Positions 6,846-63,661 of a stretch of 64,000 nucleotides of DNA are shown here, in pieces. This DNA is from Escherichia phage vB_EcoM_KAW3E185: the sequence record MK373782.1. One strand, written 5' to 3'. The stretch's first letter is position 1. Each line of letters opens with the position of its first letter. Under the pieces are notes generated by a model that had not been told where the DNA came from, did not search any database, and saw only the letters and a list, made by a program, of their open reading frames with translations. The position numbers and the translations under genes are program-made.

Positions 6846-7370
6846 TCATTTTAGCAAAATAAAATCAACTTGTTCTGCCAATGAACGTCTAAACATTAAT
6901 TGACAACTTCCGAGGATGAAATCAGGTGCTTCATAGACGGCGATGTAGTATCCTTTAGCTTTCAAGAGTTCAACATCCACCTGGTCATCAAACCATGCAT
7001 AAACCGCGTCAACACTTTCAAATCCAAAATAGAACCCTTGAGCCCAATCTTCACTCAATTCAAATGTGTGCTCAATTCTATAGTATCTTAAGATATTTTG
7101 TTCAAGGAGTTTGTCTTCATTTACTGTAGGACGATTAGGGACATTATAGTTGTCGCCATGATGGTAGAAGTTACCCGAGAGTATTCCATGCTTATCAAGG
7201 AACTCCCATGTTTCTTCAGAGTTGTCGGTGCCTGACCAACCGTATGGTGAGCGAGGTTCTTTATTCCAAGAGGTTTCCCAAATTCTGATGGCTTTACCGT
7301 CTTCGATAGCAATTCCTGGTAATGATTCACGTTGAGTACAAAAACTACGTTCTACGCGGTAAACTATCAT
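6846..7370 (-). CDS. hypothetical protein (174 aa)
   Basis: ORF with GGAG Shine-Dalgarno and upstream early promoter. Confidence 0.5.
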   Translation of the reverse strand: MIVYRVERSFCTQRESLPGIAIEDGKAIRIWETSWNKEPRSPYGWSGTDNSEETWEFLDKHGILSGNFYHHGDNYNVPNRPTVNEDKLLEQNILRYYRIEHTFELSEDWAQGFYFGFESVDAVYAWFDDQVDVELLKAKGYYIAVYEAPDFILGSCQLMFRRSLAEQVDFILLK

Positions 7371-7396
7371 ATTATTCTCCTCTGGTTGATATGGTT

Positions 7397-7425
7397 ATAA
7401 TATCAAAACCGGAGGAGAAGTAAAC
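7397..7425 (-). promoter_or_regulatory. sigma70-type early promoter (-35 GTTTAC, 17-nt spacer, -10 TATTAT)
   Basis: Consensus hexamers read on minus strand upstream of ORF 6846-7370; coordinates approximate. Confidence 0.45.
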
Positions 7426-8909: not shown

Positions 8910-8939
8910 ATTATACTCCAACCATCCTTGGTTGTAAAC
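8910..8939 (-). promoter_or_regulatory. early promoter (-35 GTTTAC, 18 nt, -10 TATAAT), cassette family A
   Basis: Minus strand reads GTTTACaaccaaggatggttggagTATAAT; coordinates approximate. Confidence 0.5.
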
Positions 8940-12877: not shown

Positions 12878-13458
12878 TAAAAATTCAACATTTTCAAATG
12901 AATGATTTTGTATAATCGAGATAAAGGGTCATATTCTAAGTCTTCAATTTCCACAATCTCAAATCTAGAGATACCTGAAACCATGTACTCTTGTTCAGAT
13001 TCAATCATATCTAGGACGTCAACACGCTTTTCTTCCATAACATGCTTAGGGTTCTTTCCGGCGAGTACAATGTTAATCATGTTTTGGTAGTAATCAAAAA
13101 TGAATGGAGCATTCCTGAGACTAAGAATAGTGTACGTCTGATATTCCCATCTCCCAGAGAATTGACAAGCTGTACTGAAATCAGTTGTGAACGATGTTAC
13201 TCGTCCAGGAGACCAATGGCATCCAACAGAAAGAAGGGAAAGACGTTCTACTTCTTCTGGAGTTACACCACGGTAGAGTTCTACTGGTACTGTAGAAGTC
13301 ATATGCTTACGAACAAGATGGTCTAATTCATAGTGGAAATCCGGGTCTTCCTTAGAATCGGTGCAAGCCCAGAGAATGTTTTGTTCTTGGCGGGTGAATT
13401 TGCTATCAATCAGATTTGTTAGGTATTCACGTTCTTGAAGTTCAGATTGACATGTCAT
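12877..13458 (-). CDS. modB: ADP-ribosyltransferase, ModB-like
   Basis: LYRG...TSFT...EQEYMV (R-S-ExE ART motifs); start chosen at Met14 with GGAGG Shine-Dalgarno. Confidence 0.6.
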   Translation of the reverse strand: MTCQSELQEREYLTNLIDSKFTRQEQNILWACTDSKEDPDFHYELDHLVRKHMTSTVPVELYRGVTPEEVERLSLLSVGCHWSPGRVTSFTTDFSTACQFSGRWEYQTYTILSLRNAPFIFDYYQNMINIVLAGKNPKHVMEEKRVDVLDMIESEQEYMVSGISRFEIVEIEDLEYDPLSRLYKIIHLKMLNF

Positions 13459-13485
13459 GATAGACCTCCATTTAAAGATAAGCCT

Positions 13486-13514
13486 ATCATAACACAAGAG
13501 GAGGGAATGTAAAC
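13486..13514 (-). promoter_or_regulatory. early promoter (-35 GTTTAC, 17 nt, -10 TATGAT), cassette family B
   Basis: Minus strand reads GTTTACattccctcctcttgtgtTATGAT upstream of modB; coordinates approximate. Confidence 0.45.
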
Positions 13515-14995: not shown

Positions 14996-15001
14996 TGTAG
15001 A

Positions 15002-15030
15002 AACAAAAAAAGGAATCCCGAAGGATTCCT
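15002..15030 (-). terminator. rho-independent terminator after soc (aaggaatcc-UUCG-ggattcctt + U7)
   Basis: Perfect 9-bp stem, UUCG loop, U-run on minus transcript just after the soc stop. Confidence 0.65.
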
Positions 15031-18876: not shown

Positions 18877-19162
18877 CTGTGATTTCGGTTACGATATCTT
18901 TGTTATCGAAATTAGGGTCACAATACAAAACATAGTTGTACTGCATGATACCGCCAGACTTAAGTTGTTCAACAACTTTATTAACCATATTAGGACGGTC
19001 TCGTTTAGTGATGTTCATGATATCAGAGAAGATTTGTTGTTCAACATCTTCTTGATTTGCAGTCATTGACCACTCACAGAGGTCTTTATCATAACCTGCC
19101 GTAACTGGAGCCGGTGCACATGATACTGCAAGTAAGATTGCTGCCAATGATAACTTTTTCAT
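18869..19162 (-). CDS. sp: spackle periplasmic protein (97 aa)
   Basis: Signal peptide; GYDKDLCEWSMTA...SGGIMQYNYVLYCD matches T4 Sp as I recall it. Confidence 0.7.
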   Translation of the reverse strand: MKKLSLAAILLAVSCAPAPVTAGYDKDLCEWSMTANQEDVEQQIFSDIMNITKRDRPNMVNKVVEQLKSGGIMQYNYVLYCDPNFDNKDIVTEITGE

Positions 19163-19225
19163 TTTAACTCCTTAGTTGATTTGATAGGACTACTATACTA
19201 TAGTCCATCTATAATGTAAACAAGT

Positions 19226-20178: not shown

Positions 20179-20370
20179 TTATCCTCTGAAATCAGCTTCA
20201 AAAACTTTCTCGTCATTAATAAATGCTTTAACTAATGCATTGTTCACTTCAGCAAGTTGTACCGTAACCCACTCGATTTCTTCGCGATCACCTGATAACA
20301 TGATATCTTTAGTGAACATCTCACCGCTTTTAAACCAACCGATAAAAGTAACTTTAGTTAATTTGCTCAT
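20179..20370 (-). CDS. dmd: Dmd-like antitoxin (inhibitor of RnlA/LsoA RNase toxins)
   Basis: KVTFIGWFKSGEMFTKDI...AEVNNALVKAFINDEKV resembles T4 Dmd as I recall it; start chosen at Met8. Confidence 0.65.
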   Translation of the reverse strand: MSKLTKVTFIGWFKSGEMFTKDIMLSGDREEIEWVTVQLAEVNNALVKAFINDEKVFEADFRG

Positions 20371-20684
20371 ATTTCCTCGCAAAATGCCCATTCAGCGTGA
20401 TAAACTGTAGCGCCTTTAGTATCATTCATTTGAACTACATCTACCGGAGAAATTACTCGATAGAGACGTGGTTCACCTCCATAAGAGCGTGCTGCTCGTC
20501 CTGCATAAATCTTTGCTAAACCGATATCTTCAGTAAAGAATACACGATCCAAGTTTTTCTTACGTCCAGTTTCAGACAGAACTCCTGTTTCTTCAGGAGG
20601 ACAAAGCATGTTTTCGATGTTAGCTGAACTACTTGAACCGTGATAAAAAATCTTAAATTCTGCTTTACAATCGATGGTTTTCAT
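20367..20684 (-). CDS. hypothetical protein (105 aa)
   Basis: ORF on gene strand with upstream early promoter. Confidence 0.45.
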   Translation of the reverse strand: MKTIDCKAEFKIFYHGSSSSANIENMLCPPEETGVLSETGRKKNLDRVFFTEDIGLAKIYAGRAARSYGGEPRLYRVISPVDVVQMNDTKGATVYHAEWAFCEEI

Positions 20685-20710
20685 TTTGTTCTCCAGTAGT
20701 TGATAGGTCT

Positions 20711-20739
20711 ATAATAACACAACTACTGGAGAAGTAAAC
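20711..20739 (-). promoter_or_regulatory. early promoter (-35 GTTTAC, 17 nt, -10 TATTAT), cassette family B
   Basis: Minus strand reads GTTTACttctccagtagttgtgtTATTAT; coordinates approximate. Confidence 0.5.
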
Positions 20740-21114
20740 TTAAAAATGTAATTTAGATATATCTGCGTTGATTTCGTTTTGGTTTGCGTCATATGCAATT
20801 AAACGAACCGCTTTAGATGGGTCATTCAATGCATAGAAATGATGGAACATTGCTCGAACGATATCACCATTTACGAGTTCTACCTGGATAGGAGAACCTT
20901 TTTCGAGTTGGAAATGTTCGTAAGCTTTGATGGTTCGTAGATAATCAAGTTTTTGATTTCCAGCTCCAACTATTTGTACGATACGTTTGCCTGTGTTTTC
21001 CATACGAGATACAATAGTTTTAGGAGCAAGAATAACGTAGGTTGCCAGCGGAGAAACTACTTCAACAGTTGTGTTTTCGGTGATTGCAGTAAAAATTGCT
21101 TGAGACATATTCAT
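20740..21114 (-). CDS. hypothetical protein (124 aa)
   Basis: ORF on gene strand. Confidence 0.5.
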   Translation of the reverse strand: MNMSQAIFTAITENTTVEVVSPLATYVILAPKTIVSRMENTGKRIVQIVGAGNQKLDYLRTIKAYEHFQLEKGSPIQVELVNGDIVRAMFHHFYALNDPSKAVRLIAYDANQNEINADISKLHF

Positions 21115-21143
21115 AATGTTTTCCTCTTTGTTGGTGTAAATAC

Positions 21144-21173
21144 ATCATATCATGCCTAGAGGAAGATGTAAAC
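21144..21173 (-). promoter_or_regulatory. early promoter (-35 GTTTAC, 18 nt, -10 TATGAT)
   Basis: Hexamers upstream of ORF 20740-21114; coordinates approximate. Confidence 0.4.
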
Positions 21174-21177
21174 CCCG

Positions 21178-21199
21178 AAAGGAGACCGAAGTCTCCTTT
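21178..21199 (-). terminator. hairpin aaaggagac-UUCG-gtctccttt after gene 41
   Basis: 9-bp stem with UUCG loop directly after the gene 41 stop; weak U-tract, so could be a stability element rather than a terminator. Confidence 0.45.
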
Positions 21200-21202
21200 T
21201 TA

Positions 21203-22645
21203 TTAAAATTTTAACTCGTTGGCTAAGCTATCTAGGTCAGCACGTGTTGCTTTGGCTTTACCTACGCGTTCCGTGCGATTCACCTCTGCCTGACGCATCT
21301 GAGCACCTGCGTTTTCATTTACTGTGTTAGGTGTGTTCATGCCTTCTTGCTCAATCTCAATCCATTTCTGGTTGCCTTTACGTACACCCATCAGGAATTT
21401 ATTCCACTTATTCTTATCACCATATCGTGATTTGATTTGTTTGATAAGTTGTTGTTCAGCTTGTGCAAGTTCTTCGGTTTCAATTACAGCCAACATGAAA
21501 TCTGCCGTTGCTGGTAAACCTGCTGATTCTGCGATATCACTCATGTTCATGTCTGAAGCATCCCATGCTGCACGCCCTACTTGAGCTGCAGTCCATAGAA
21601 CTGTTTCAGATTCTACTGCTAATGCACGAAGTTCTTCTGCGATAGCTTTAACTAATGTGTAGCTATTTTCAGTGTAAACTCTGATACGACACGACCCACA
21701 AATACCTAAGTAATCAACCATGATTACAGATGGCACAAAGTTCTTCTTAAGTTTTAACTCATTAAGCAATGCACGGAATGTATTAGCATTAGCTCCGCCA
21801 GTAGGATACTGTTTAACTACTAAACGTCCTAATGTTGTTTTTGAACGCCATTTTTCCATCTTGGCTTTATATTCAGCATAAGATACGTTACCATCATCGA
21901 TATCATCGAGTGATACGTCAAGCATGTTTGCATCTATACGCTTAGCACAAACTTCTTCAGCCATTTCCATGGAAATATAAAGAACATTATGACCTGTTTG
22001 AAGATAATCTGCAGCAAGTGAACAAAGACCTAAAGATTTACCAACGTTAACACCGGCCATTAAAACATTCAGTGTACCTGTTTCTGCACCGCCTTTGGTG
22101 ATTTTATTCAAAATGTTTAATTTGAACGGGACCTTACGTGCTTTATTTAGATAAGAAAGCCAGCGTGCTTCGTAGTCTTCCATCCAGTCATGTCCAACAT
22201 AACTATCGAACGAAATTGAAAGTGCTTGACGCATAATATCAGGAATAGCTCCTACGTCAGGCATTTTCTTGTTACGTTGTTCTGGAGGTAGTTCAGCATT
22301 AGACTGAATCTCAATGATTTTGGATGTAGCATTATACATCGCTTTTTGCTGGACATATTTCTCAGTTTCTTTAACCAACCATTCGTGGTCTTCAGGAGTA
22401 TCAGCCAATTTTTCAATTAGGTCTGAAGTTCCTTTATATTCGGCTTCAGTTAAAGAACTGTTATCTAAAGCCACCTTTAACGCATTGATAGATGGCATTG
22501 CATTATATTCGTTAACGTGGCTCTTTATAATTTTAAAGACATTTTTTGCCGGTCCACGCTCAAAATACTCAGAATCCATATAAGGCCAGACCTTAGAAAA
22601 ATAAGCCTGGTCATATACTAGATGAGACAAAATAATTTCTACCAC
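21203..22645 (-). CDS. 41: replicative DNA helicase gp41 (DnaB-like), 480 aa
   Basis: N-terminus MVEIILSHLVYDQAYFSKVWPYMDSEYFE and Walker A GVNVGKS match T4 gp41 as I recall it. Confidence 0.9.
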   Translation of the reverse strand: MVEIILSHLVYDQAYFSKVWPYMDSEYFERGPAKNVFKIIKSHVNEYNAMPSINALKVALDNSSLTEAEYKGTSDLIEKLADTPEDHEWLVKETEKYVQQKAMYNATSKIIEIQSNAELPPEQRNKKMPDVGAIPDIMRQALSISFDSYVGHDWMEDYEARWLSYLNKARKVPFKLNILNKITKGGAETGTLNVLMAGVNVGKSLGLCSLAADYLQTGHNVLYISMEMAEEVCAKRIDANMLDVSLDDIDDGNVSYAEYKAKMEKWRSKTTLGRLVVKQYPTGGANANTFRALLNELKLKKNFVPSVIMVDYLGICGSCRIRVYTENSYTLVKAIAEELRALAVESETVLWTAAQVGRAAWDASDMNMSDIAESAGLPATADFMLAVIETEELAQAEQQLIKQIKSRYGDKNKWNKFLMGVRKGNQKWIEIEQEGMNTPNTVNENAGAQMRQAEVNRTERVGKAKATRADLDSLANELKF

Positions 22646-47760: not shown

Positions 47761-48805
47761 CATTATATTCAGCATGAGTCGCAAATTCATGCTCGTTTAT
47801 ATGAAACAACAAAATTTGGATAGTCCATAGATATGCAACGTTCTTTTATAGTGCTAGGATGAAAATTTAGCGCTTTAGCTGCTTCTATATAAGACGTATA
47901 CTTAATACCGTCAACAACCACATATTCAGGAACTTTATGAATAGTAGTCTTAATACTCAAAACAAGAGGATGAGTTTCGACTTCACTTTCAGTGCAATTT
48001 AAATATTCCGCTGCTTTTTTAAAACTTCTAAAAGTTTTATTTTTAAGCTTTATCGATACTTGTTTTTTACTTTTTCGACTATTGATATTATTTTGCACAT
48101 GTTCCTTAGATCTTCCGTTTTTAGCATAATATTCAGCTACAGAAGATTTTATATTGTTTTTATGAGATTCGGATAACACTTTACCCTTATGAGCATCTCT
48201 TAATTTTTGAATATGTTCTTCAGTATCCGGATGCTTATAAAACTTTTTACCGCCTATGGATTTATTTAAACATTTTTTGCTATAAAAATATTTACGTATG
48301 ACCTCTTCTTCATGTTTTAATGCATCTTTATAACTATCAAATGTTTTTAAAATTATCCATTTAGTAGGTGTATCAGTTTTTAAGCGTTCATTTATATACT
48401 TAGATGACGTTGTGTAAGTTTTCCAGTTTGTGGGCTTATTTTTAATTGTTCTAAATTTTTTATAACCGATATAAATGTCGCCATTAGAAAACTTAACTAA
48501 GTATGTAAATGCGTCTTTATCTTTTATTTTAGTACAACGTCTTTTTATCCATTTCATTGTTTCACCTCGTATTCATAAGATAATCTTATTTATACAAGAT
48601 GACTGCTGCATGTCGCCATGCAGATTAGACTATATCTTCATCTTTCGATGCCGGCCGTTTCGAATAGCATTAGCTTCTATTCTACACCGCTACATTCATC
48701 ACGGTTAGTCGTTAGGCATTTAGTTCAAAAGAACATTTAGCACGGGATTGTCTACTAGAGAGGTTCCCCGTTTAGACCGGTTTTACATGAGCCTGAATTA
48801 AATTA
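47761..48805 (-). mobile_element. group I intron in nrdD (about 1045 nt) carrying a homing-endonuclease ORF
   Basis: nrdD reading frame is interrupted; exon 1 ends in U and the intron ends in G; GC-rich conserved core CUAAACGGGGAACCUCUCUAGUAGACAAUCCCGUGCUAAAU; splicing restores ...AFQAYE-YEVNTLF... Confidence 0.65.
47787..48557 (-). CDS. intron-encoded GIY-YIG homing endonuclease (I-TevII-like), 256 aa
   Basis: FTYLVKFSNGDIYIGYKKF GIY-YIG motif; located entirely within the nrdD intron. Confidence 0.7.
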   Translation of the reverse strand: MKWIKRRCTKIKDKDAFTYLVKFSNGDIYIGYKKFRTIKNKPTNWKTYTTSSKYINERLKTDTPTKWIILKTFDSYKDALKHEEEVIRKYFYSKKCLNKSIGGKKFYKHPDTEEHIQKLRDAHKGKVLSESHKNNIKSSVAEYYAKNGRSKEHVQNNINSRKSKKQVSIKLKNKTFRSFKKAAEYLNCTESEVETHPLVLSIKTTIHKVPEYVVVDGIKYTSYIEAAKALNFHPSTIKERCISMDYPNFVVSYKRA

Positions 48806-52880: not shown

Positions 52881-52910
52881 ATTATACTCCAACCATCCTT
52901 GGTTGTAAAC
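52881..52910 (-). promoter_or_regulatory. early promoter (-35 GTTTAC, 18 nt, -10 TATAAT), cassette family A
   Basis: Same 30-bp cassette as at 8910-8939; coordinates approximate. Confidence 0.5.
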
Positions 52911-54987: not shown

Positions 54988-55515
54988 TTATGCGTGAACC
55001 GTCTTTAAACGTTCTTCAAATTTCCGAAGAGTACTAATACGTTCTGCTTTCTGTTTTGTATAGTTTGCAATACGTTCTGAAGTGAGAGCGTATCGTTCGT
55101 TTACTGATTCTTTCATGAAGTCAGGGATTTCACGAGAAGCTTTAATTTCATCAAACTTATCGAGTACTGCCTGGTCTTCAGCGATTAAATTTTCGTACAT
55201 CTCGATATCTTTCTTGATAAACTCGATATCTTCCTGGGTTACTTTGGATAAACGAGATGCTTTATCCTTTTTGTACTGCTCGTTAGTTTCACGAGACCAG
55301 AATAATGTACGTTTTTTGTTAGTGTTTTTGTAGACTTCCACAATTCCAACTGAATCGATGATAACAATCCAATTCCAGCGAGATTTGAAAATCTGACCTC
55401 CGTCCACGGTAATCTCGTTACCATAAGCAACGTCATTAAAGAACTTGCTTTGTGCTTCAGATTTAAATTTACCGTCGTTATAATTTACCAGGTTGAAAAT
55501 ATCTTTAGCGTTCAT
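54988..55515 (-). CDS. hypothetical protein with C-terminal coiled coil (175 aa)
   Basis: ORF with upstream early promoter. Confidence 0.5.
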   Translation of the reverse strand: MNAKDIFNLVNYNDGKFKSEAQSKFFNDVAYGNEITVDGGQIFKSRWNWIVIIDSVGIVEVYKNTNKKRTLFWSRETNEQYKKDKASRLSKVTQEDIEFIKKDIEMYENLIAEDQAVLDKFDEIKASREIPDFMKESVNERYALTSERIANYTKQKAERISTLRKFEERLKTVHA

Positions 55516-55542
55516 GTTTTACCTCCAGTAGTTGATAGGTCT

Positions 55543-55571
55543 ATAATAACATAACCATAGACCTTGTAAAC
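55543..55571 (-). promoter_or_regulatory. early promoter (-35 GTTTAC, 17 nt, -10 TATTAT), cassette family B
   Basis: Hexamers followed by AGACCTATCAACTACTGGAGG leader; coordinates approximate. Confidence 0.5.
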
Positions 55572-55573
55572 AA

Positions 55574-55861
55574 CTAAAAGAAACTTTTTTCGGTATTTTT
55601 TCCACTGAACCAAACAGACTTCGGGATTTTTTGTAATTTTTCAGATTTAAGTTTCTCTTCCTGTTCTTTCTTATATACACCCTTGTCGTACTGGAGCACC
55701 TCTATGGCATTCTTTTGCAAACGATCTAAGGTAATTAAGGCTTTAGTTTTTCCTTTCAAGGAAGAGTCCTGGCGAACCTCCTCGCTATATTGCATTGTAG
55801 AACTAACCATACGATGAGCATACAGTTCTACTGCGGCTTTAATTTTTTGCATAAAATCCAT
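55574..55861 (-). CDS. hypothetical protein (95 aa)
   Basis: ORF on gene strand with AGAGGA Shine-Dalgarno. Confidence 0.45.
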   Translation of the reverse strand: MDFMQKIKAAVELYAHRMVSSTMQYSEEVRQDSSLKGKTKALITLDRLQKNAIEVLQYDKGVYKKEQEEKLKSEKLQKIPKSVWFSGKNTEKSFF

Positions 55862-55962
55862 AACATATCCTCTTTGATTTGTACATCATTATTTTTAAAT
55901 ATTTCTATGCCCTCAGTAGGTTCCTGGTGTCCTTCTTTGAGGTAAGCCATATGATTATTCAT
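55828..55962 (-). CDS. small hypothetical protein (about 44 aa), doubtful
   Basis: Track ORF 55828-56037 overlaps both neighbours; start chosen at an internal Met. Confidence 0.25.
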   Translation of the reverse strand: MNNHMAYLKEGHQEPTEGIEIFKNNDVQIKEDMLWILCKKLKPQ

Positions 55963-56000
55963 CTTTATAGCTTTTGTTACCTCAGAACTTCCTATAAAGC

Positions 56001-56468
56001 TTATTTCAGTAAAGTAACTTCCGAGATTTCTTCCCAACCATCTTTATCAGTTGAAATAAAATCTGCTACATAAAGAGCCGTACGTAATGATACATTGCGA
56101 AGACGAGATACGTTAGCCTTCATCCAGGACAATGCTTTATACGTTTCTGCATCAGTCAGACCACGTTTCTGCATCATGTCAGTAGATAATATTACATCTT
56201 CAACTCGAACCATAATCTCTTCATTAGAGTGTACTCCAAGGTCGAGATACACTGAACGAGATACTAAAGCTTGAAGGTGTGGAGCAAGTTTAGAACCGCG
56301 TTCTAACTCTTTATCGATATCAACGTTTGTAATGAAAACGATAGTACCTTCAAACTCAAATTCTTTATCAATACCCTTATCCTCGAGATAAGATGACGCA
56401 GTGCTCCAACAAACTTTGCGTTTATCGCCGGTATCTAATGCTGCTTTAAGAAGGTTCAAGATGTCCAT
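56001..56468 (-). CDS. AAA+-like ATPase C-terminal fragment (155 aa); gene possibly frameshifted
   Basis: Sensor-1-like TIVFITNVD and Arg-finger-like LVSRSVYL; in-frame upstream codons continue ...LLIDDVDVFSD (Walker B-like) with no start codon. Confidence 0.4.
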   Translation of the reverse strand: MDILNLLKAALDTGDKRKVCWSTASSYLEDKGIDKEFEFEGTIVFITNVDIDKELERGSKLAPHLQALVSRSVYLDLGVHSNEEIMVRVEDVILSTDMMQKRGLTDAETYKALSWMKANVSRLRNVSLRTALYVADFISTDKDGWEEISEVTLLK

Positions 56469-56694
56469 ATCTGAGAATACGTCAACGTCGTCGATTAAGA
56501 GAACGCTGTCTGCATCACGGTTGAGCCAAAGTTGTTCGTAAAGGCCAATACCGGAGATTTTACCATACTCGCTTCAATAAGATTCACTATGCCGTTTACC
56601 ATGTTATAGGTAAACATCGGATAATTGTATTGTACTACAACATAAGCGATAAGCAAAAGTTTCATTTTGTTCTCCGTTCGTTTTGATAGGACTA

Positions 56695-56723
56695 CTATAA
56701 TATAGTCCTACCAAGATGTAAAC
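56695..56723 (-). promoter_or_regulatory. early promoter (-35 GTTTAC) with GGACTA...TAGTCC near-palindrome
   Basis: Upstream of the 56-codon ORF starting about 56663; coordinates approximate. Confidence 0.35.
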
Positions 56724-56956
56724 TACCGATTGTGTTTTAAATGTTGATAAAGTTCTTCAACTTGTTTAGGGTCCAAAACAATTAAGTCATTTTCTTGACG
56801 AAGATAAATCCATCCCTTATCCCCAGGGCCATTTTTACAAAACATCACCACCATATCATCATCTTCAGCGCTTTCAGGTAAAAGTTCAAGTACACCGTCT
56901 TCAGATTTTCCAGTATAATCGTAAAGCATAATGTCCTCACATAATCTCGTTAACAT
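56723..56956 (-). CDS. hypothetical acidic protein (77 aa)
   Basis: ORF on gene strand. Confidence 0.45.
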   Translation of the reverse strand: MLTRLCEDIMLYDYTGKSEDGVLELLPESAEDDDMVVMFCKNGPGDKGWIYLRQENDLIVLDPKQVEELYQHLKHNR

Positions 56957-57116
56957 ACATTTGCAATTCGGTGTGGGCTTCGGCCATCTTTTTCATAGCT
57001 CTGTTAATGTCGATGTCTCCATCTTCGCAACCATGAGCATTTTCCCAATCGGATACCGCATTAGCGTACTCTTCAATCAAAAACATCAACTTAGAAATCT
57101 TTTCTTTACGTGACAT
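56937..57116 (-). CDS. small hypothetical protein (about 59 aa)
   Basis: Track ORF 56937-57185; start chosen at Met24 with GAGGAG Shine-Dalgarno below the promoter. Confidence 0.4.
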   Translation of the reverse strand: MSRKEKISKLMFLIEEYANAVSDWENAHGCEDGDIDINRAMKKMAEAHTELQMYVNEIM

Positions 57117-57143
57117 AACGTTCTCCTCTAGTAAGTAAGGTTT

Positions 57144-57172
57144 ACTATAACACAACCTGAGGAGAAGTAAAC
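57144..57172 (-). promoter_or_regulatory. early promoter (-35 GTTTAC, 17 nt, -10 TATAGT), cassette family B
   Basis: Minus strand reads GTTTACttctcctcaggttgtgtTATAGT; coordinates approximate. Confidence 0.45.
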
Positions 57173-57187
57173 TGATAGATGCCAAAA

Positions 57188-57211
57188 AGCCCCAACCTTT
57201 CGGAAGGGGCT
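57188..57211 (-). terminator. terminator hairpin (agcccc..ggggct stem, GAAA loop) + U5
   Basis: Stem-loop followed by UUUUU on minus transcript after ORF 57218-57520; coordinates approximate. Confidence 0.5.
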
Positions 57212-57217
57212 AGTAAA

Positions 57218-57520
57218 TTAGATAGATGTAGGCTCTAATTTTATTTTCATGAACTCGGCAAATTGTCTGGCAGTTTTTATGCCTTGTTCATGACATTCAA
57301 ATGCATCATCACAGGGACTATTTTTGTAATGCTTTGCCATATACTTATAGAATTTTTCAGAATTCTCGACATTTTGAATTTCAAACAAAGTATATACGTT
57401 TTTAATCCCTGATTCCATAAAGTTATCAAAATATGGGTCGATATGTGCAGTACCAACGATAGGAGTTGTTGCTGCAAAAAACCCCAGCATCGCTATGACA
57501 GCTATCGCTCTTAAGGCCAT
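57218..57520 (-). CDS. secreted/periplasmic protein with signal peptide (100 aa)
   Basis: N-terminal MALRAIAVIAMLGFFAATTPIVGTA signal-like sequence. Confidence 0.5.
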   Translation of the reverse strand: MALRAIAVIAMLGFFAATTPIVGTAHIDPYFDNFMESGIKNVYTLFEIQNVENSEKFYKYMAKHYKNSPCDDAFECHEQGIKTARQFAEFMKIKLEPTSI

Positions 57521-57532
57521 ATAGGCCTCCTG

Positions 57533-57745
57533 TTAATTTTGGCCAGTATTTATTTTTCGCCTTTGGACGGCCTTAACATCTGCGAGGTATTTTTCCAGCT
57601 TGCGCTTGCGTGTATAATCAGCTTTAGAACCAGTTTGACGGATATCCTCGTTTAAATGAGAAATAGAATGTCCTAATTCTCTTCGGATTTCATCCAATTG
57701 GGTTACAGTAAGATTACGAAGTTGTCTTTCGTTTAATTGCTGCAT
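57533..57745 (-). CDS. small basic protein (70 aa)
   Basis: ORF with late promoter upstream. Confidence 0.45.
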
Positions 57746-57769
57746 ATATACCTCTTGGTTAGATATTAG

Positions 57770-57777
57770 TATTTATA
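57770..57777 (-). promoter_or_regulatory. T4-type late promoter TATAAATA
   Basis: Exact TATAAATA on minus strand overlapping the tk stop, about 25 nt upstream of ORF 57533-57745. Confidence 0.5.
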
Positions 57778-58354
57778 ACAACCCTGTCAAATCATTCCAA
57801 TGCTTCCGGCATAATGACACGTATCTATCGGTATCACCAATTTCAATTTGACTGCCATCTGTAATTGGAAGTCCGTCTTCCGTGACTCTAGCTACCATTG
57901 TGGCCTTTTTACCACAATGACAGACACCTTTAAGTTCAACAAGCTTATCGGCAATAGCCATTAATGCTTGAGAACCTTCAAATAGATTACCTTTAAAATC
58001 TGTTCGTAGTCCATATGCCATTACCGGCACATTGTACACGTCAACAATACGACTAAGTTGATACACCTTTTCAGTAGTTAAGAACTGAGCTTCGTCAACA
58101 AATACGCAGTGAATATCCTTTTGTGCTGCAGCCCATTTATAAAATTCAAAGATATCCATGTCTTTTGTAATTATATTGGCGTCCTGACGAATACCAATAC
58201 GAGAGACTATTTCACCTTTTGAATCGCGAGTATCAATAGCCGGTTTAAGAACTAATACACCCATGCCACGTTCTTTATAGTTATGTGCGGCAGTAAGTAA
58301 TGAAGCAGACTTACCAGCGTTCATAGCGGCATAGGTAAAAATTAAACTAGCCAT
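57773..58354 (-). CDS. tk: thymidine kinase (193 aa)
   Basis: Walker A YAAMNAGKS, zinc ribbon CHCG...CRKH; matches T4 Tk as I recall it. Confidence 0.9.
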   Translation of the reverse strand: MASLIFTYAAMNAGKSASLLTAAHNYKERGMGVLVLKPAIDTRDSKGEIVSRIGIRQDANIITKDMDIFEFYKWAAAQKDIHCVFVDEAQFLTTEKVYQLSRIVDVYNVPVMAYGLRTDFKGNLFEGSQALMAIADKLVELKGVCHCGKKATMVARVTEDGLPITDGSQIEIGDTDRYVSLCRKHWNDLTGLL

Positions 58355-58363
58355 AAGAGTCCC

Positions 58364-58546
58364 TTATAGTGAATTCACGTAGTCAATGAGTTCTTGTTCT
58401 TTCCTGTCAAATGATTCCAACAATGCTTGATATTCTTCGTCCGTCAAAGGAGCATATTCATCATACGCATTGGTGGCTGCTTGCTCATCCAATAGGTCAT
58501 GGATAAGTTCGAACAGTTTAGCTTTCTCTTCTTTAGTTAATTTCAT
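58364..58546 (-). CDS. small acidic hypothetical protein (60 aa)
   Basis: ORF on gene strand. Confidence 0.4.
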   Translation of the reverse strand: MKLTKEEKAKLFELIHDLLDEQAATNAYDEYAPLTDEEYQALLESFDRKEQELIDYVNSL

Positions 58547-58770
58547 TTAGGTTCACCTTCTTTAACGAAATCTGGGTAAGGGTAAAATCCTGAGTAAAAC
58601 CCTTCACCTTTATGATTGCTACAACCTTTGTTCGAACAGTAACACCAATAATCAAAATCACAAGCCATTTCGTCATTGCATAAAGCAAAAACTACAGGCC
58701 ATTCGCATTTTTCGCATTTAGCACCTGTAAGAATTTTTGTTTGACTCATAGCCATGTCACCTTTAAGCAA
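58543..58770 (-). CDS. small Cys-rich protein (75 aa)
   Basis: CEKCEW...CSNKGCSNHKGEG. Confidence 0.45.
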   Translation of the reverse strand: MLKGDMAMSQTKILTGAKCEKCEWPVVFALCNDEMACDFDYWCYCSNKGCSNHKGEGFYSGFYPYPDFVKEGEPK

Positions 58771-58973
58771 TATTCTTCTACATGTTGTTTACGGCCTTTC
58801 TTATCAATAAAGGTATATTCAACGAATGTTCCGATGTAGTCTTTATCTACATCATGTGGACTATTAATTGGACATTTGGTACGGCAAATGCGTTCCCATT
58901 GACGAATAATTACTGCCTTATTCTTTGGGTCATATGGATGTGGATAATGTATATTCATAATAACGGTTCCCAA
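58746..58973 (-). CDS. hypothetical protein (75 aa)
   Basis: ORF on gene strand. Confidence 0.4.
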   Translation of the reverse strand: MGTVIMNIHYPHPYDPKNKAVIIRQWERICRTKCPINSPHDVDKDYIGTFVEYTFIDKKGRKQHVEEYCLKVTWL

Positions 58974-59452
58974 TCAACAATCACAATTTCTAGTTTAGTA
59001 GAATACGTATCTAAAATCTCTTCGATGACATCCCAGTTTCCACCACCAATACCTGCACCAATTCTTGGCATATAAATTACAGGCTTTATTATCTTATTCT
59101 TTCCGAATTCATTTAATTCTATTATACAATTCATTAAAGCAGAGTACTCAAAATTAGGTCCCGGCTCAAACTGTGTATAAAGATTAAAGCAATAAGCTTT
59201 ATGGGTCTTAAAATATTTTTCATAAACCGAATAAGTCCCGAGTTTAGACTCGTCTCCGAATTCGGTTTGAAGTTTATCGGCTTCCAGAATTTTTGGATAA
59301 GCCTTTGCTAATTGGCCTGCTACACCGGCGCCCATTGTATGAAAACAATTACACCCATGAGCAATATTATTACCTTTAGAAAACAGGGCGACAATATCGC
59401 CCTTGATATAGTTTTTAATCACTTGCTGCAAGTCCTCTATTATAAGAGTCAA
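58955..59452 (-). CDS. macro-domain protein (ADP-ribose binding/processing), 165 aa
   Basis: NIAHGCNCFHTMGAGVAGQL and IGAGIGGGNW glycine-rich motifs typical of macro domains. Confidence 0.55.
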   Translation of the reverse strand: MTLIIEDLQQVIKNYIKGDIVALFSKGNNIAHGCNCFHTMGAGVAGQLAKAYPKILEADKLQTEFGDESKLGTYSVYEKYFKTHKAYCFNLYTQFEPGPNFEYSALMNCIIELNEFGKNKIIKPVIYMPRIGAGIGGGNWDVIEEILDTYSTKLEIVIVDWEPLL

Positions 59453-59762
59453 CTAGACGGTCCACCATAGAATTGCATGCTGCCTTATCTTTAGGTTCCG
59501 CCACCGAGCATTCTAATATTTGCCATTTTTTATAGTATCTTTTAATTAAGGTAGACGCCTTGAACCTACTAGACGCCCCGTCTTTTTCTCCGTCTTTATA
59601 CGCATATAACAATTTTTGTGAAAAATCTACTTTACACTCTTGACTTTTACCACAGTAATCAGACGCCGTTCTGTTTGTATACTCCGTTACATCAGTATAT
59701 GTAGTATTAGCAAGAGCGTTAAATGAAACCAAGCCAACTATTAAAGCCAACATTTTGGTCAT
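59415..59762 (-). CDS. secreted Cys-containing protein with signal peptide (115 aa)
   Basis: N-terminal MTKMLALIVGLVSFNALA signal-like sequence. Confidence 0.45.
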   Translation of the reverse strand: MTKMLALIVGLVSFNALANTTYTDVTEYTNRTASDYCGKSQECKVDFSQKLLYAYKDGEKDGASSRFKASTLIKRYYKKWQILECSVAEPKDKAACNSMVDRLVDSYNRGLAASD

Positions 59763-60301
59763 TCTTTTATTTCCAGTAGTTTATTTGATTTAAGGTAATT
59801 AGCCTTTTCTAGGACTTCAGAAGCATATTTACTTCCGGCACTTGTCTTCCATCCCGCATTATATGAGGATATAGCTTTTCTTATATCCCCGTTATGTATA
59901 TTTAACCAATAAGAAAATTCGATATAAGCCCATCTGGCTGAATTAGACCGCTTAGATAGCATTTTCTTAATTTGGGCATCAGTCATATTATAACCAAGCT
60001 GGTTAATTCTTGCCCTCATTGTCGGTAGATAATTTTGGAACATTCCATACGCATGGTGACCTTTCTTATCTTTAAGATTAATACCGGCAGATGATTCCTG
60101 CCATAGTATTGCGGCCATTATGTATCCAAGTCCTTTCTTATGCATATTTTCATGCGTTTTAAATTTTCCATCCTTAGAAAACTGTTCCCCAAACTGATAA
60201 GCATAATTCAAGTTATCGAGTTGGACATTACTAAAAGTATGCTCGGAGCTATGTGCTGATAACGAAAGAGCAAATAGACCAGCGAGTAGTGCTTTTCTCA
60301 T
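59759..60301 (-). CDS. secreted lytic transglycosylase-like protein (SLT domain), 180 aa
   Basis: Signal peptide; WQESS, AYGMFQ and SYNAGW motifs typical of SLT/goose-lysozyme fold. Confidence 0.55.
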   Translation of the reverse strand: MRKALLAGLFALSLSAHSSEHTFSNVQLDNLNYAYQFGEQFSKDGKFKTHENMHKKGLGYIMAAILWQESSAGINLKDKKGHHAYGMFQNYLPTMRARINQLGYNMTDAQIKKMLSKRSNSARWAYIEFSYWLNIHNGDIRKAISSYNAGWKTSAGSKYASEVLEKANYLKSNKLLEIKE

Positions 60302-60309
60302 GTTTACCT

Positions 60310-60768
60310 CTAGATTTTAATCACTGCTTTAGAAGCTTTTCCTGGTAGTCGTTTACTGTTAATAATAGCCATTCTGCATTGAAGAGTCTTCATTTTGAAT
60401 GCTGGATTTTCGCGACAAACTGTAAGTCCTAACCAAAGATTTCCGTCAGTTATTTCTAAACGGCCTGGGCGATATTCGACACCTTCGACAAAATCTTCAT
60501 CAACATCTGGACGGGCCGGCATTGATAAAAATTCTGCAACTTCTTTAACATGATTTTTTACTTTATGAAATAATTCAAAAACGTAATTCTCATCTATTTC
60601 TCTCTGGATGGCACGATCTAAGAGATGTTGAGAATACTTGATATGAAAGCCTGGTAGTCCAAGAGACTTTGCAGCATCTTTTATACCGGCATTTATTTTG
60701 CGGAACTCCGTTTCAAAGATTCGACGGAGTTTATTACGGCGGATAAAAACGTCTGAATTGATAGTCAT
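60310..60768 (-). CDS. regB: RegB endoribonuclease (152 aa)
   Basis: MTINSDVFIRRNKLRR...YSQHLLDRAIQREIDE...GRLEITDGNLWLG matches T4 RegB as I recall it. Confidence 0.85.
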   Translation of the reverse strand: MTINSDVFIRRNKLRRIFETEFRKINAGIKDAAKSLGLPGFHIKYSQHLLDRAIQREIDENYVFELFHKVKNHVKEVAEFLSMPARPDVDEDFVEGVEYRPGRLEITDGNLWLGLTVCRENPAFKMKTLQCRMAIINSKRLPGKASKAVIKI

Positions 60769-60796
60769 TTTGATTTCTCCTCTAGTTGACAGGTCT

Positions 60797-60825
60797 ATAG
60801 TAACACAACTAGAGGAGAAGTAAAC
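60797..60825 (-). promoter_or_regulatory. early promoter (-35 GTTTAC, 17 nt, -10 TACTAT), cassette family B
   Basis: Minus strand reads GTTTACttctcctctagttgtgtTACTAT upstream of regB; coordinates approximate. Confidence 0.5.
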
Positions 60826-60829
60826 TACT

Positions 60830-61045
60830 TTATTGATAAAATGGAGTTAAAGCCCAAGATTCTTTAGATACCATATTGGCGAAATGCCTCATCTCTTCGA
60901 TTTGGCGTCGACGCTGGTCAGCATAGTCTTCTTCGCCTTCTTCCTTACAATCTTCAAGGTCTTCTTCAAGATACTTTAAGTATTCACTACAAATTTTGTT
61001 GACCTTTTCTTGAAAGTCCAATAACCCAGTAATAGTAGAAGCCAT
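60830..61045 (-). CDS. small acidic hypothetical protein (71 aa)
   Basis: ORF on gene strand. Confidence 0.4.
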   Translation of the reverse strand: MASTITGLLDFQEKVNKICSEYLKYLEEDLEDCKEEGEEDYADQRRRQIEEMRHFANMVSKESWALTPFYQ

Positions 61046-61311
61046 TAGTATTTTTCCTCAGGTCGAAATACTGCACGACACGCCCACATGCTGGCTTCTT
61101 TTAGATGTTGCTTAGCATACTTAAGAGCCTGCACTGCATCCATATCTTCTTTGGTTTGTTGCTCTGTTTCATTTTCTTTCAAGATATATGCTTCTTCAAT
61201 CAGAGCATCAAACAACAATCCAAGACGGACTTCTGCATCTTTAATAGCGTTCACTTTACCGATTTTATCATCGGTATGCGGCTTGTAGCCTTTGATGTCT
61301 TCAATCGACAT
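61045..61311 (-). CDS. hypothetical protein (about 88 aa)
   Basis: Track ORF 61045-61479; start chosen at Met57 with GAGGAAA Shine-Dalgarno. Confidence 0.4.
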   Translation of the reverse strand: MSIEDIKGYKPHTDDKIGKVNAIKDAEVRLGLLFDALIEEAYILKENETEQQTKEDMDAVQALKYAKQHLKEASMWACRAVFRPEEKY

Positions 61312-61525
61312 AAGGAATTTCCTCATCAGTGGCAAGGTCATATTCGACCAATTGGATAGGCTCATTAATACCATATCCACGTACAGTGATATCAGTTGTC
61401 GGATAGTTTCCGGTAATATCACCCATTCTAAATGCTTCAGTGAATGATTGCTCGCCTGAGCAACTAAACCAGGCGGCAAAACATTTTAAAACATCTTCAG
61501 ACCCTTCTATAATCAATTTAGCCAT
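61301..61525 (-). CDS. hypothetical protein (74 aa)
   Basis: ORF on gene strand; ATG overlaps the upstream stop. Confidence 0.45.
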   Translation of the reverse strand: MAKLIIEGSEDVLKCFAAWFSCSGEQSFTEAFRMGDITGNYPTTDITVRGYGINEPIQLVEYDLATDEEIPYVD

Positions 61526-63190: not shown

Positions 63191-63604
63191 TTAGTAAATT
63201 GATTTGCCATAATATTTGTACCAAGACGGCCGTTGAGCAATTTTTTCATCTAAGCGTGCTTGACTTATCGCAATGGACGCTTCGGACGGGTCATAATTAT
63301 TACGAAATTCGGCAGGGATGTCGGAAATATCCTGGACTGTCGTGTCCTTGATTTTGAAACCACGTTTCAAGCATTCAGCGATTAGCTCGATTTGACGTAA
63401 ACGTAAAAATTCGAGTTTGTCGTAAAAGAATGTTACGTGACCTGTGCCTAAGATAAATGTTGGAGAGATTTTAAAATCCTTTACACGTTTACCGTTTTGA
63501 ACATGTTTACGGACTGCACCAAATACGCGTGGTAATTCACGATACTCAGCCATAAGATGTTGGTCGGCCAGTTCAGAAACAAGTGTTAAATTGATACGAG
63601 TCAT
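63191..63604 (-). CDS. denV: endonuclease V (pyrimidine dimer DNA glycosylase) DenV
   Basis: [35 protein letters not shown] matches T4 DenV as I recall it; start chosen at Met5 with GGAGGA Shine-Dalgarno. Confidence 0.9.
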
Positions 63605-63631
63605 AATTTCCTCCAAGTAGTTGATGAATGT

Positions 63632-63661
63632 ATAGTATCAAAGTCCTTGGAGGAAGTAAAC
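63632..63661 (-). promoter_or_regulatory. early promoter (-35 GTTTAC, 18 nt, -10 TACTAT) upstream of denV
   Basis: Hexamers on minus strand; coordinates approximate. Confidence 0.4.

Follow-up and report, generated by a model that had tools for sequence, protein, structure and literature searches.

Bacteriophage T4 and its relatives carry dozens of strong early promoters packed in tandem and, to our knowledge, neither the reason for so many tandem early promoters nor the meaning of their sequence conservation beyond the polymerase contacts has ever been clear. Here we describe a group of such promoters in a 64,000-nucleotide stretch of Escherichia phage vB_EcoM_KAW3E185 (sequence record MK373782.1; the window below refers to this whole stretch), in which the first part of the spacer between the -35 and -10 hexamers is complementary to the Shine-Dalgarno (SD) region of the gene downstream.

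Three types of described system are relevant to this arrangement. In phage RB69, 57 T4-type early promoters have been predicted, with a GT-rich stretch before the -10 hexamer and a C-rich -3..-1 region (Nolan et al. 2006, PMC1524935), while the extra consensus of the T4 early promoters has been ascribed to polymerase contacts in reviews (PMC2988021). Promoter-embedded hairpins that sequester the ribosome binding site (RBS) have been established experimentally for the T4 genes e, soc, 49 and I-TevI (PMC3014915; PMC2988022), and the known RBS-sequestering hairpins with an internal promoter all belong to late genes (PMC2988022). In these genes, as well as in I-TevII, I-TevIII, segB and mobE of Aeh1, the SD lies in a helix whose 5' strand is upstream of the internal promoter, and only transcripts from that promoter are translatable. 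Finally, the PeSL cassettes (Arbiol 2010; Comeau 2014) of RB49/phi1, PST/T4 and nt-1/KVP40 are repeated intergenic units of ~60-100 bp, comprising an early promoter, stem-loop, SD and ATG, that occur in plastic early regions; their stems are G/C-rich and have been read as terminators and recombination sites, and they occupy the spacer or overlie the -10 in RB49 but precede the promoter in PST/T4 (PMC2839356, PMC4122927).

The units in the window share features with all three. As in the T4 late genes, the SD is predicted to be held by pairing with a 5' strand located upstream of an internal promoter, and only transcripts from this promoter are proposed to be translatable. The known cases, however, have late (gp55) promoters of the form TATAAATA, whereas those in the window are early sigma-70 promoters of early-gene orthologues that do not qualify as late promoters, and the -35/-10 spacer itself supplies the 5' arm, unlike in the described late-gene cases. 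The logic would also differ, in that expression would be confined to the earliest transcripts rather than delayed. The PeSL unit, in turn, is likewise present in the early region of this phage, but here the SD itself serves as the 3' arm, the hairpin is not followed by a U-tract, and each locus has its own covarying arms. We consider it moderately probable that these promoters represent an early-promoter version of the T4 e/soc/49/I-TevI switch, with a promoter inside an SD-masking hairpin, which overlaps the PeSL concept.

Complementarity of promoter spacers and Shine-Dalgarno regions

The region 55000-61500 of the window shares 99.2% identity with Escherichia phage APCEc01 (Mosigvirus, RB69 group of T4-like phages) and the region 1-24000 shares 98% identity with other Mosigvirus phages, while T4 itself shows 60-80% identity to the window. 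All early genes of the window are located on the minus strand. The pattern GTTTAC-N15-19-TATWRT was matched 11 times, compared with 0.35 matches expected from shuffles, and a looser scan (GTTTAC / 17-18 nt / TAnnnT) yielded 18 sites, each with an SD and ATG within 22-34 nt downstream; all matches in both scans are on the minus strand. Comparison against T4 (tblastn) identified orthologues of regB, denV, motB.2, motB.1, modA/B, nrdC.8, imm, sp and mrh.2 downstream of the promoters, which are furthermore preceded by A/T-rich sequence with a putative UP-element role. Promoters are named here by the high coordinate of the -35 hexamer (e.g. 60825), while the initial annotation of this DNA used the low end of the -10 hexamer. 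In their hexamers, 17-18-nt spacer, GT-rich/TGn stretch (with TGT directly 5' of the -10 at 20739, 55571, 57172, 60825 and 13514), C-rich -3..-1 region, orientation and placement, the sites are all like T4-type early promoters. No difference is seen at the promoter level and, as judged from sequence, they constitute a subset of that class, the early sigma-70 promoters. The anti-SD content of the spacer, on the other hand, is absent from the published accounts of T4-type early promoters examined.

The initial annotation had assigned six of these promoters to a separate family, B, on the basis of a conserved spacer (ttctcc..gttgtgt) and a AGACCTATCAAC leader, and had proposed that they share a regulatory input. 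It had not noticed that the spacer and leader blocks are mutual reverse complements (TTCTCC/GGAGAA, GTTG/CAAC). Within the spacer, ttctcc is complementary to GGAGAA, the SD, and gttg to the CAAC in ATCAAC; the remaining tgt is the extended -10 TGn. The bases between the conserved blocks vary from promoter to promoter yet stay complementary which, together with the complementarity of the blocks themselves, argues for a base-paired structure acting in cis rather than a site for a trans-acting factor.

Orthologous promoters of other T4-like genera, taken from IMG/VR, retain the pairing with different arms. The regB orthologues stay paired through CTAGTTG/CAACTAG (this phage), CTTTATG/CATAAAG and TGTAAG/CTTACA, and the T4 regB arms (CTTGACTG/CAGTTAAG) form 15 bp including two G-U pairs, while the denV orthologues stay paired through CCAAG/CTTGG, TGTAG/CTACA, GTTTG/CAAAC and TGTG/CACA. 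A scan of IMG/VR with GTTTACTTCTCCNNNNNTTGTGTTA returned only 7 stretches; among the matches listed for a looser pattern, most were chance occurrences in unrelated contigs, and these loci served solely as extra background. Covariation was scored on arms extracted blindly from promoters having both anchors, as the 8 nt after CTCC in the spacer and the 8 nt before GGAG in the leader, which gave 38 distinct arm pairs with at least ten different arm sequences; a MAFFT alignment of 20 whole cassettes left the SD arms out of register and was replaced by these anchor-extracted arms. Among the 38 pairs, 82 cells are changed on both sides (shuffles: 39.9 ± 4.6) and the covariation score is 0.324 (shuffles: 0.117 ± 0.016; 0/500 reach 0.324), falling to 0.06-0.10 in slid registers. 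Similarly, 75% of the cells are paired in the true register compared with 40-50% in slid registers, and run-length permutation of the arm pairing gave 3.63 versus 0.93 ± 0.24.

The pairing is also specific to each promoter. When each spacer was paired with its own leader, the summed energy was -200.6 kcal/mol, as opposed to -144.6 ± 11.1 kcal/mol with the other 17 leaders (permutation p ~5e-5). Five RNA cassettes (60825, 63661, 55571, 20739 and 7425) are predicted to fold with z-scores of -4.2 to -5.9 relative to 200 dinucleotide shuffles each, with 0/200 shuffles as stable, while the folds of 57172, 13514 and 21173 are weaker. The probability that the SD is unpaired was derived by partition-function folding, both for read-through RNA and for the transcript of the promoter itself. 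At 63661, 60825, 57172, 20739 and 7425 it is 0.00 in the former and 0.37-0.72 in the latter, and at 13514 and 44138 it is 0.04-0.06 in the read-through context. The 3' arm covers the SD in every strong case, despite the large loop of 17-28 nt, in which the discriminator AGACCT sits together with the -10. The 5' arm lies within the spacer and ends at least 3 nt before the -10, and a transcript from the promoter itself therefore cannot contain it. Across these predicted folds, the common denominator of the sites is the masking of the start region and not a particular sequence.

A corresponding enrichment is evident in T4. Annotated CDS starts in the 1-78 kb region of T4 were classed as masked where the SD was unpaired with a probability of < 0.1, and as promoter-proximal where an early promoter occurs within 75 nt; promoters were called by pattern, the GenBank T4 record being without promoter features, and the SD was located by motif, as a fixed window (-14..-5) diluted the signal because SD spacing varies. 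Masked start regions comprise 9/22 of the early-promoter-proximal starts and 10/105 of the others (Fisher p = 9e-4), and the own transcript is open in 8/9 of the former (motB.2, modB, mrh.2, nrdC.8, mobD.5, regB, denV and e.8). The masked starts among the others include the published cases e, 49, I-TevII and segB (PMC3014915), showing that the method finds known cases. In a small and non-independent sample, the mask is absent from promoters that, with an intrinsic terminator directly in front of them, should receive little read-through (0/6, versus 64/113), which fits a device aimed at read-through RNA.

The directly observed sequences, their complementarity, their covariation and the enrichment of masking at promoter-proximal start regions can be combined into a model, in which we infer the start site, the read-through RNA, its folding in vivo and its effects on translation, RegB and Rho. 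A T4-type early promoter would be packed into the ~70-nt gap between two early genes, with the first 10-15 nt of its -35/-10 spacer serving as an anti-SD able to pair with the SD and with the adjoining leader bases on its 5' side. In the loop would lie the start site, placed ~7 nt after the -10 on the basis of published logos (PMC1524935), as well as the discriminator and the TGn/-10 hexamer. As the start would lie inside the loop, mRNA from the own promoter would lack the 5' arm, its SD would be free and it would be translated, while read-through RNA from an upstream promoter would contain both arms and form a 10-15-bp hairpin in which the SD is buried. Translation of the gene would thus be confined, in essence, to its own immediate-early transcript. 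The free SD and A-rich tail (GGAGRAYARAA-like) of this transcript would furthermore present a single-stranded target to RegB/S1, such that it would be quickly inactivated, and its supply would end when the early promoters are shut off. In the read-through RNA the GGAG would be paired, and this RNA should therefore be both untranslatable and RegB-resistant; the untranslated gene within it might in addition favour Rho-dependent termination, insulating transcription units from one another.

The regulatory input that the initial annotation had proposed can be retained in part. A common input does exist, in a trivial sense, in the host sigma-70 RNA polymerase acting at T4-type early promoters and, probably, in RegB/S1 cleavage at GGAG and the A-rich tail. 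The extended conservation, by contrast, does not constitute one recognition sequence, as the conserved blocks are complementary to each other, and with a cis hairpin to explain it no shared trans-acting factor is necessary. More tentatively, we suggest that about 40% of T4-type early promoters carry an anti-SD spacer and form a covariation-supported, genome-wide cis switch that ties translation and RegB-site exposure to proximal initiation; that read-through RNA is translationally silent and RegB-resistant at the downstream gene would, on this wider reading, be equally tentative. No earlier description of early-promoter/SD hairpins was found in the literature searched, the older subscription literature (Liebig & Rüger 1989; Mosig et al. 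1998; the 1994 T4 book) lying outside this search, and it is conceivable, though less likely than not, that the pairing has already been noted there or elsewhere.

Should the spacer act as an anti-SD, regB, denV, the ADP-ribosyltransferase genes, motB.2 and several ORFans would be expressed only from their own short-lived transcripts, and the switch would define strictly 'immediate-early' proteins. It would provide a purely cis-encoded means by which powerful early effectors are made only in a burst during the first minutes, regardless of early or middle read-through from upstream, and would bring together, in one 60-nt element, the shut-off of early promoters, the cleavage of SDs by RegB and polarity through Rho. 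The extra consensus of T4 early promoters would find a partial explanation, and tandem early units might be insulated via Rho. A gene moved without its promoter spacer, or read from a new promoter, would be expected to change in translation, which is of relevance to the annotation of T4-like phages and the engineering of therapeutic phages. As the -10 lies in the loop, it can be inactivated with the stem left untouched.

Individual promoter cassettes

The coordinates of the cassettes are given in Table 1.

Table 1. Early promoter cassettes of the window and their pairing arms
Feature	Position	Strand	Sequence	Remarks
regB promoter/hairpin cassette	60766..60825	-		-35 GTTTAC at 60820-60825; ATG at 60766-60768
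regB cassette, 5' arm	60806-60819	-	TTCTCCTCTAGTTG	in promoter spacer
regB cassette, TGn and -10	60797-60802	-	TACTAT	
regB cassette, 3' arm	60775-60788	-	CAACTAGAGGAGAA	includes SD
denV promoter/hairpin cassette	63602..63661	-		-35 at 63656-63661; ATG at 63602-63604
denV cassette, 5' arm	63646-63655	-	TTCCTCCAAG	
denV cassette, -10	63632-63637	-	TACTAT	
denV cassette, 3' arm	63608-63617	-	CTTGGAGGAA	
Promoter of 59-aa open reading frame (ORF; phrog_2758, weakly mobD.2a-like)	57114..57172	-		
Promoter of nrdC.8 orthologue (promoter 55571)	55513..55585	-		differing geometry; -10 at 55543-55548
Promoter of 105-aa ORF (phrog_2110), directly upstream of dmd	20682..20739	-		-35 at 20734-20739; ATG at 20682-20684
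20739 cassette, 5' arm	20720-20733	-	TTCTCCAGTAGTTG	
20739 cassette, -10	20711-20716	-	TATTAT	
20739 cassette, 3' arm	20689-20702	-	CAACTACTGGAGAA	
Promoter of motB.2 orthologue	7368..7425	-		-10 TATTAT at 7397-7402; ATG at 7368-7370
Promoter of ModA/ModB-like gene	13456..13514	-		CCTCC/GGAGG spacer match of only 5 bp
Weak member (promoter 21173)	21112..21173	-	TTCCTCT / AGAGGAA	spacer pairing of 7 bp; fold z = -0.9, not significant

The cassettes of 60825 and 20739 each have perfect arms of 14 bp. The former drives a product with 77% identity to T4 RegB and is predicted to fold at -21.6 kcal/mol (z = -4.9; 0/200 shuffles as stable), its SD being unpaired with a probability of 0.00 in the read-through RNA and of 0.63 in the own transcript. 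The 20739 cassette (z = -5.5) differs from it by two adjacent changes in each arm, TC to AG and GA to CT, which are compensatory. The denV cassette has 10-bp arms (z = -5.2) and its product shares 91% identity with T4 DenV. In the 7425 cassette, which has the lowest z-score (-5.9), the 5' arm TTCTCCTC-C-GGTT, from 7419, pairs with the 3' arm AACC-A-GAGGAGAA, ending at 7375, over 8+4 bp. The spacer of 57172 (TTCTCCTC) pairs with GAGGAGAA over 8 bp, with a second short helix, but this hairpin is weaker than the others (z = -1.5); directly upstream, GCCCC..GGGGCTTTTT forms a hairpin resembling an intrinsic terminator. Two promoters show alternative pairings. At 55571, a stem around the -10 joins the spacer AGGTCTAT(GG) to ATAGACCT, the discriminator/+1 region, and an outer stem between CTTTTAGTTG, upstream of the -35, and CAACTACTGGAGG partly covers the SD (unpaired 0.25 in the read-through RNA; z = -4.2). 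At 13514, the predicted pairing is instead between the -10 region GTGTTATGATAGGC and the start-codon region GGTCTATCATGAC (SD unpaired 0.06 in the read-through RNA; z = -2.1). A terminator-like hairpin also precedes 21173.

The six coordinates of the initial annotation (7397, 13486, 20711, 55543, 57144 and 60797) are exact, being the low ends of minus-strand -10 hexamers, and a promoter with GTTTAC, a 17-18 nt spacer, TAnnnT and an ATG 22-34 nt downstream is present at each. Its sequence descriptions apply less evenly. The -10 formula TAT(T/A)(A/G)T does not cover 13486 (TATGAT) and 60797 (TACTAT), and the ttctcc..gttgtgt spacer occurs in full only at 20711, 57144 and 60797, with TTCTCCTCCGGTTTTGA at 7397, ATTCCCTCCTCTTGTGT at 13486 and the unrelated AAGGTCTATGGTTATGT at 55543. 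The AGACCTATCAAC leader is found at 20711, 55543 and 60797 (one change), but not at 13486 or 57144. As a whole, the description thus fits 20739, 57172 and 60825 well, 7425 in part and 13514 poorly, while 55571 has another spacer; one clear member, the denV promoter 63661, and the weak 21173 had not been listed. The genes assigned to 60825 (regB), 13514 (a ModA/ModB-like ADP-ribosyltransferase) and 20739 (the 105-aa ORF) were correct, as was the proximity to dmd, the ORF driven by 20739 (20370-20684) lying directly upstream of dmd (20182-20361). Conservation indeed reaches beyond the hexamers into the spacer and leader. A separate promoter family could not be upheld, as the sites grade into the other early promoters of the window and 55543 has a different hairpin geometry.

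Alternative explanations

Several observations weigh against an SD-masking switch. The mask is not universal, being present (SD unpaired 0.00-0.06) at seven of the 18 promoters of the window, and is lost in some orthologues, such as the phrog_2110 gene in T2/T6-like contigs, where the arms are mismatched. The variants used for covariation are phylogenetically related, and the shuffle statistics overstate their independence. The count of G-U versus A-C mismatches, meant to separate sense RNA from DNA, is 4 versus 2, with few informative positions. Furthermore, many early promoters (56723 and 19221; ipI, ipII and dmd of T4) have hairpins that flank the -10 and lie off the SD, and promoter-spanning hairpins may as such have a more general function. 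The stem could also be opened in part by ribosomes that terminate at the stop codon lying 6-10 nt upstream of the 5' arm.

A possible alternative, which we hold only tentatively and which is compatible with the switch, is that the pairing mainly guards the intergenic GGAG of a long polycistronic RNA from RegB/S1 cleavage and the ensuing decay, allowing the downstream delayed-early genes to survive, with the translational mask as a side effect. The RegB/S1 site is a single-stranded GGAGRAYARAA of 11 nt and RNA structure blocks RegB (PMC1702504; PMC3014915). This phage encodes regB and, in terms of sequence match, the leaders of 20739 and 56723 contain perfect copies of the consensus (GGAGAACAAAA) and that of 7425 a near-perfect one (GGAGAAUAAUA), while GGAGG is found in the leaders of 63661 and 55571. 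The GGAG and A-rich tail of several leaders thus resemble a RegB/S1 target, which accounts for the conservation from SD to ATG; being a single-stranded site recognised in trans, however, such a target explains only the 3' end of the motif and not the spacer. The T4 denV orthologue moreover keeps the hairpin even though its site, with C at position 9, is poorly cleaved by RegB (PMC1702504), and the masking at 13514 affects the AUG region and not the GGAG. Effects on translation and on RegB are not separable by computation.

It is less likely that the hairpins act as PeSL-type cassettes, whose stem-loops attenuate or terminate upstream transcription, and we similarly regard as unlikely that the conserved ~100-bp cassette is mainly a recombination substrate for the shuffling of early genes, with the overlap of the SD incidental to a very short leader. 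The likeness to PeSLs is considerable, as they share the order of early promoter, stem-loop, SD and ATG, the RB49/phi1 stem-loops lie between -35 and -10 or over the -10, and one of them reduced downstream lacZ like a strong terminator (PMC2839356); matching geometry occurs in the window at 56723, 19221 and 55571, and composites of a terminator followed by a promoter at 57172, 21173 and 14995. The family-B hairpins themselves, however, have no U-tract and a consensus scan called none of them terminator-like, for which reason a terminator role was rejected for them. All the strong cases have the SD as their 3' arm, even though the loop is thereby made large, while in the description of PST/T4 the stem is upstream of the promoter (PMC4122927). 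With regard to recombination, the arms covary per locus and lineage, whereas recombination between copies would homogenise rather than diversify them. The single indel seen relative to APCEc01, the closest relative, lies at a 10-nt microhomology inside ORFs and not at a cassette, which speaks against a PeSL-mediated event in this one case. In the T2/T6-like IMG/VR contigs (loci L229-L234), the leader arm CAACTTGGAGAA is combined, ~60 nt before position 401, with a spacer arm of the denV type (TCTCCTGTAGG), and these mismatched phrog_2110 arms look, in sequence, like the product of recombination inside the conserved loop between two cassettes. The recombination aspect of the PeSLs may well apply here for this reason.

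A DNA-level palindrome without RNA function, either the site of a dimeric phage or host regulator or a cruciform/quasi-palindrome kept by templated repair, appears improbable. In its favour, the AT-rich -10 region forms the centre of the inverted repeat, mutation templated by quasi-palindromes has been documented in T4, and the G-U and A-C counts given above do not favour RNA. The arms nevertheless differ between promoters and, apart from the complement of the SD, share no sequence for recognition, the coupling of the 3' arm to the SD has no meaning for DNA as such, and the alternative pairings at 13514 and in the outer stem of 55571 still mask the start region. Plain conservation of promoter and leader, through shared ancestry and an optimum for polymerase binding and escape with a coincidental complementarity to the SD, was already disfavoured and is very improbable; it would agree with the polymerase contacts invoked in the reviews (PMC2988021), the extended -10 TGn formed by the TGT before the -10, and the ATCAACTAC leaders at many hairpin-free early promoters, but not with the compensatory double changes between paralogues and between orthologues, a covariation score above all 500 shuffles and all slid registers, and the difference between own and swapped leaders (p ~5e-5).

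Further hairpins at promoters

A second hairpin geometry, with 6-13-bp arms in the spacer and at +1..+12 that flank the -10 and leave the SD free, is found at 56665-56723, 19162-19221 and 55513-55585 (all minus strand) and at the ipI, ipII, dmd and mobD.2 promoters of T4 (loci L009 and L010). Examples are TAGGACT..AGTCCTA and, in T4, GTTGACAAGATT..AATCTTGTCAAC. It matches the layout of the RB49-type PeSL, and the SD-masking model gives no account of its function.

Intrinsic-terminator-like hairpins with T-tracts are located immediately upstream of three early promoters (57173-57225, 21174-21205 and 14996-15030; all minus strand), and in these composites (57172, 21173 and 14995) the SD-masking hairpin is weak or absent. 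In ~350-kb phage contigs (loci L049-L051 and L055), upstream of denV homologues, the -35 (TTGACT) is located within a G/C-rich hairpin stem and the T-tract after the hairpin forms the promoter spacer (e.g. GGGTTGACTTCGGTCAGCCCTTTTTGCTATAAT). By its sequence, this element is a candidate for a true overlapping terminator-promoter in giant phages.

At about 56557-56566, the window has ~3.0 kb fewer than APCEc01 (L001; 3066-6078). The junction contains a 10-nt microhomology, ATGGTAAAAT, inside ORFs and away from the promoter cassette, and the indel creates a 56-aa fusion ORF (56498-56665). The promoters at 8910-8939 and 52881-52910 (both minus strand), 44 kb apart and upstream of motB.1-like and nrdC.3-like genes, share an identical 30-nt core, GTTTAC AACCAAGGATGGTTGGAG TATAAT, with a palindrome inside the spacer (AACCA/TGGTT), and this pair may correspond to the 'family A' of the initial annotation. 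Lastly, a GIY-YIG/NUMOD Seg-like homing endonuclease gene (47790-48557, minus strand) has its SD in an 11-bp hairpin (TCATCTTGTAT / ATACGAGGTGA; about 48565-48605) that encloses a late promoter, TATAAATA, and from its sequence would constitute a classical late-promoter translational switch.

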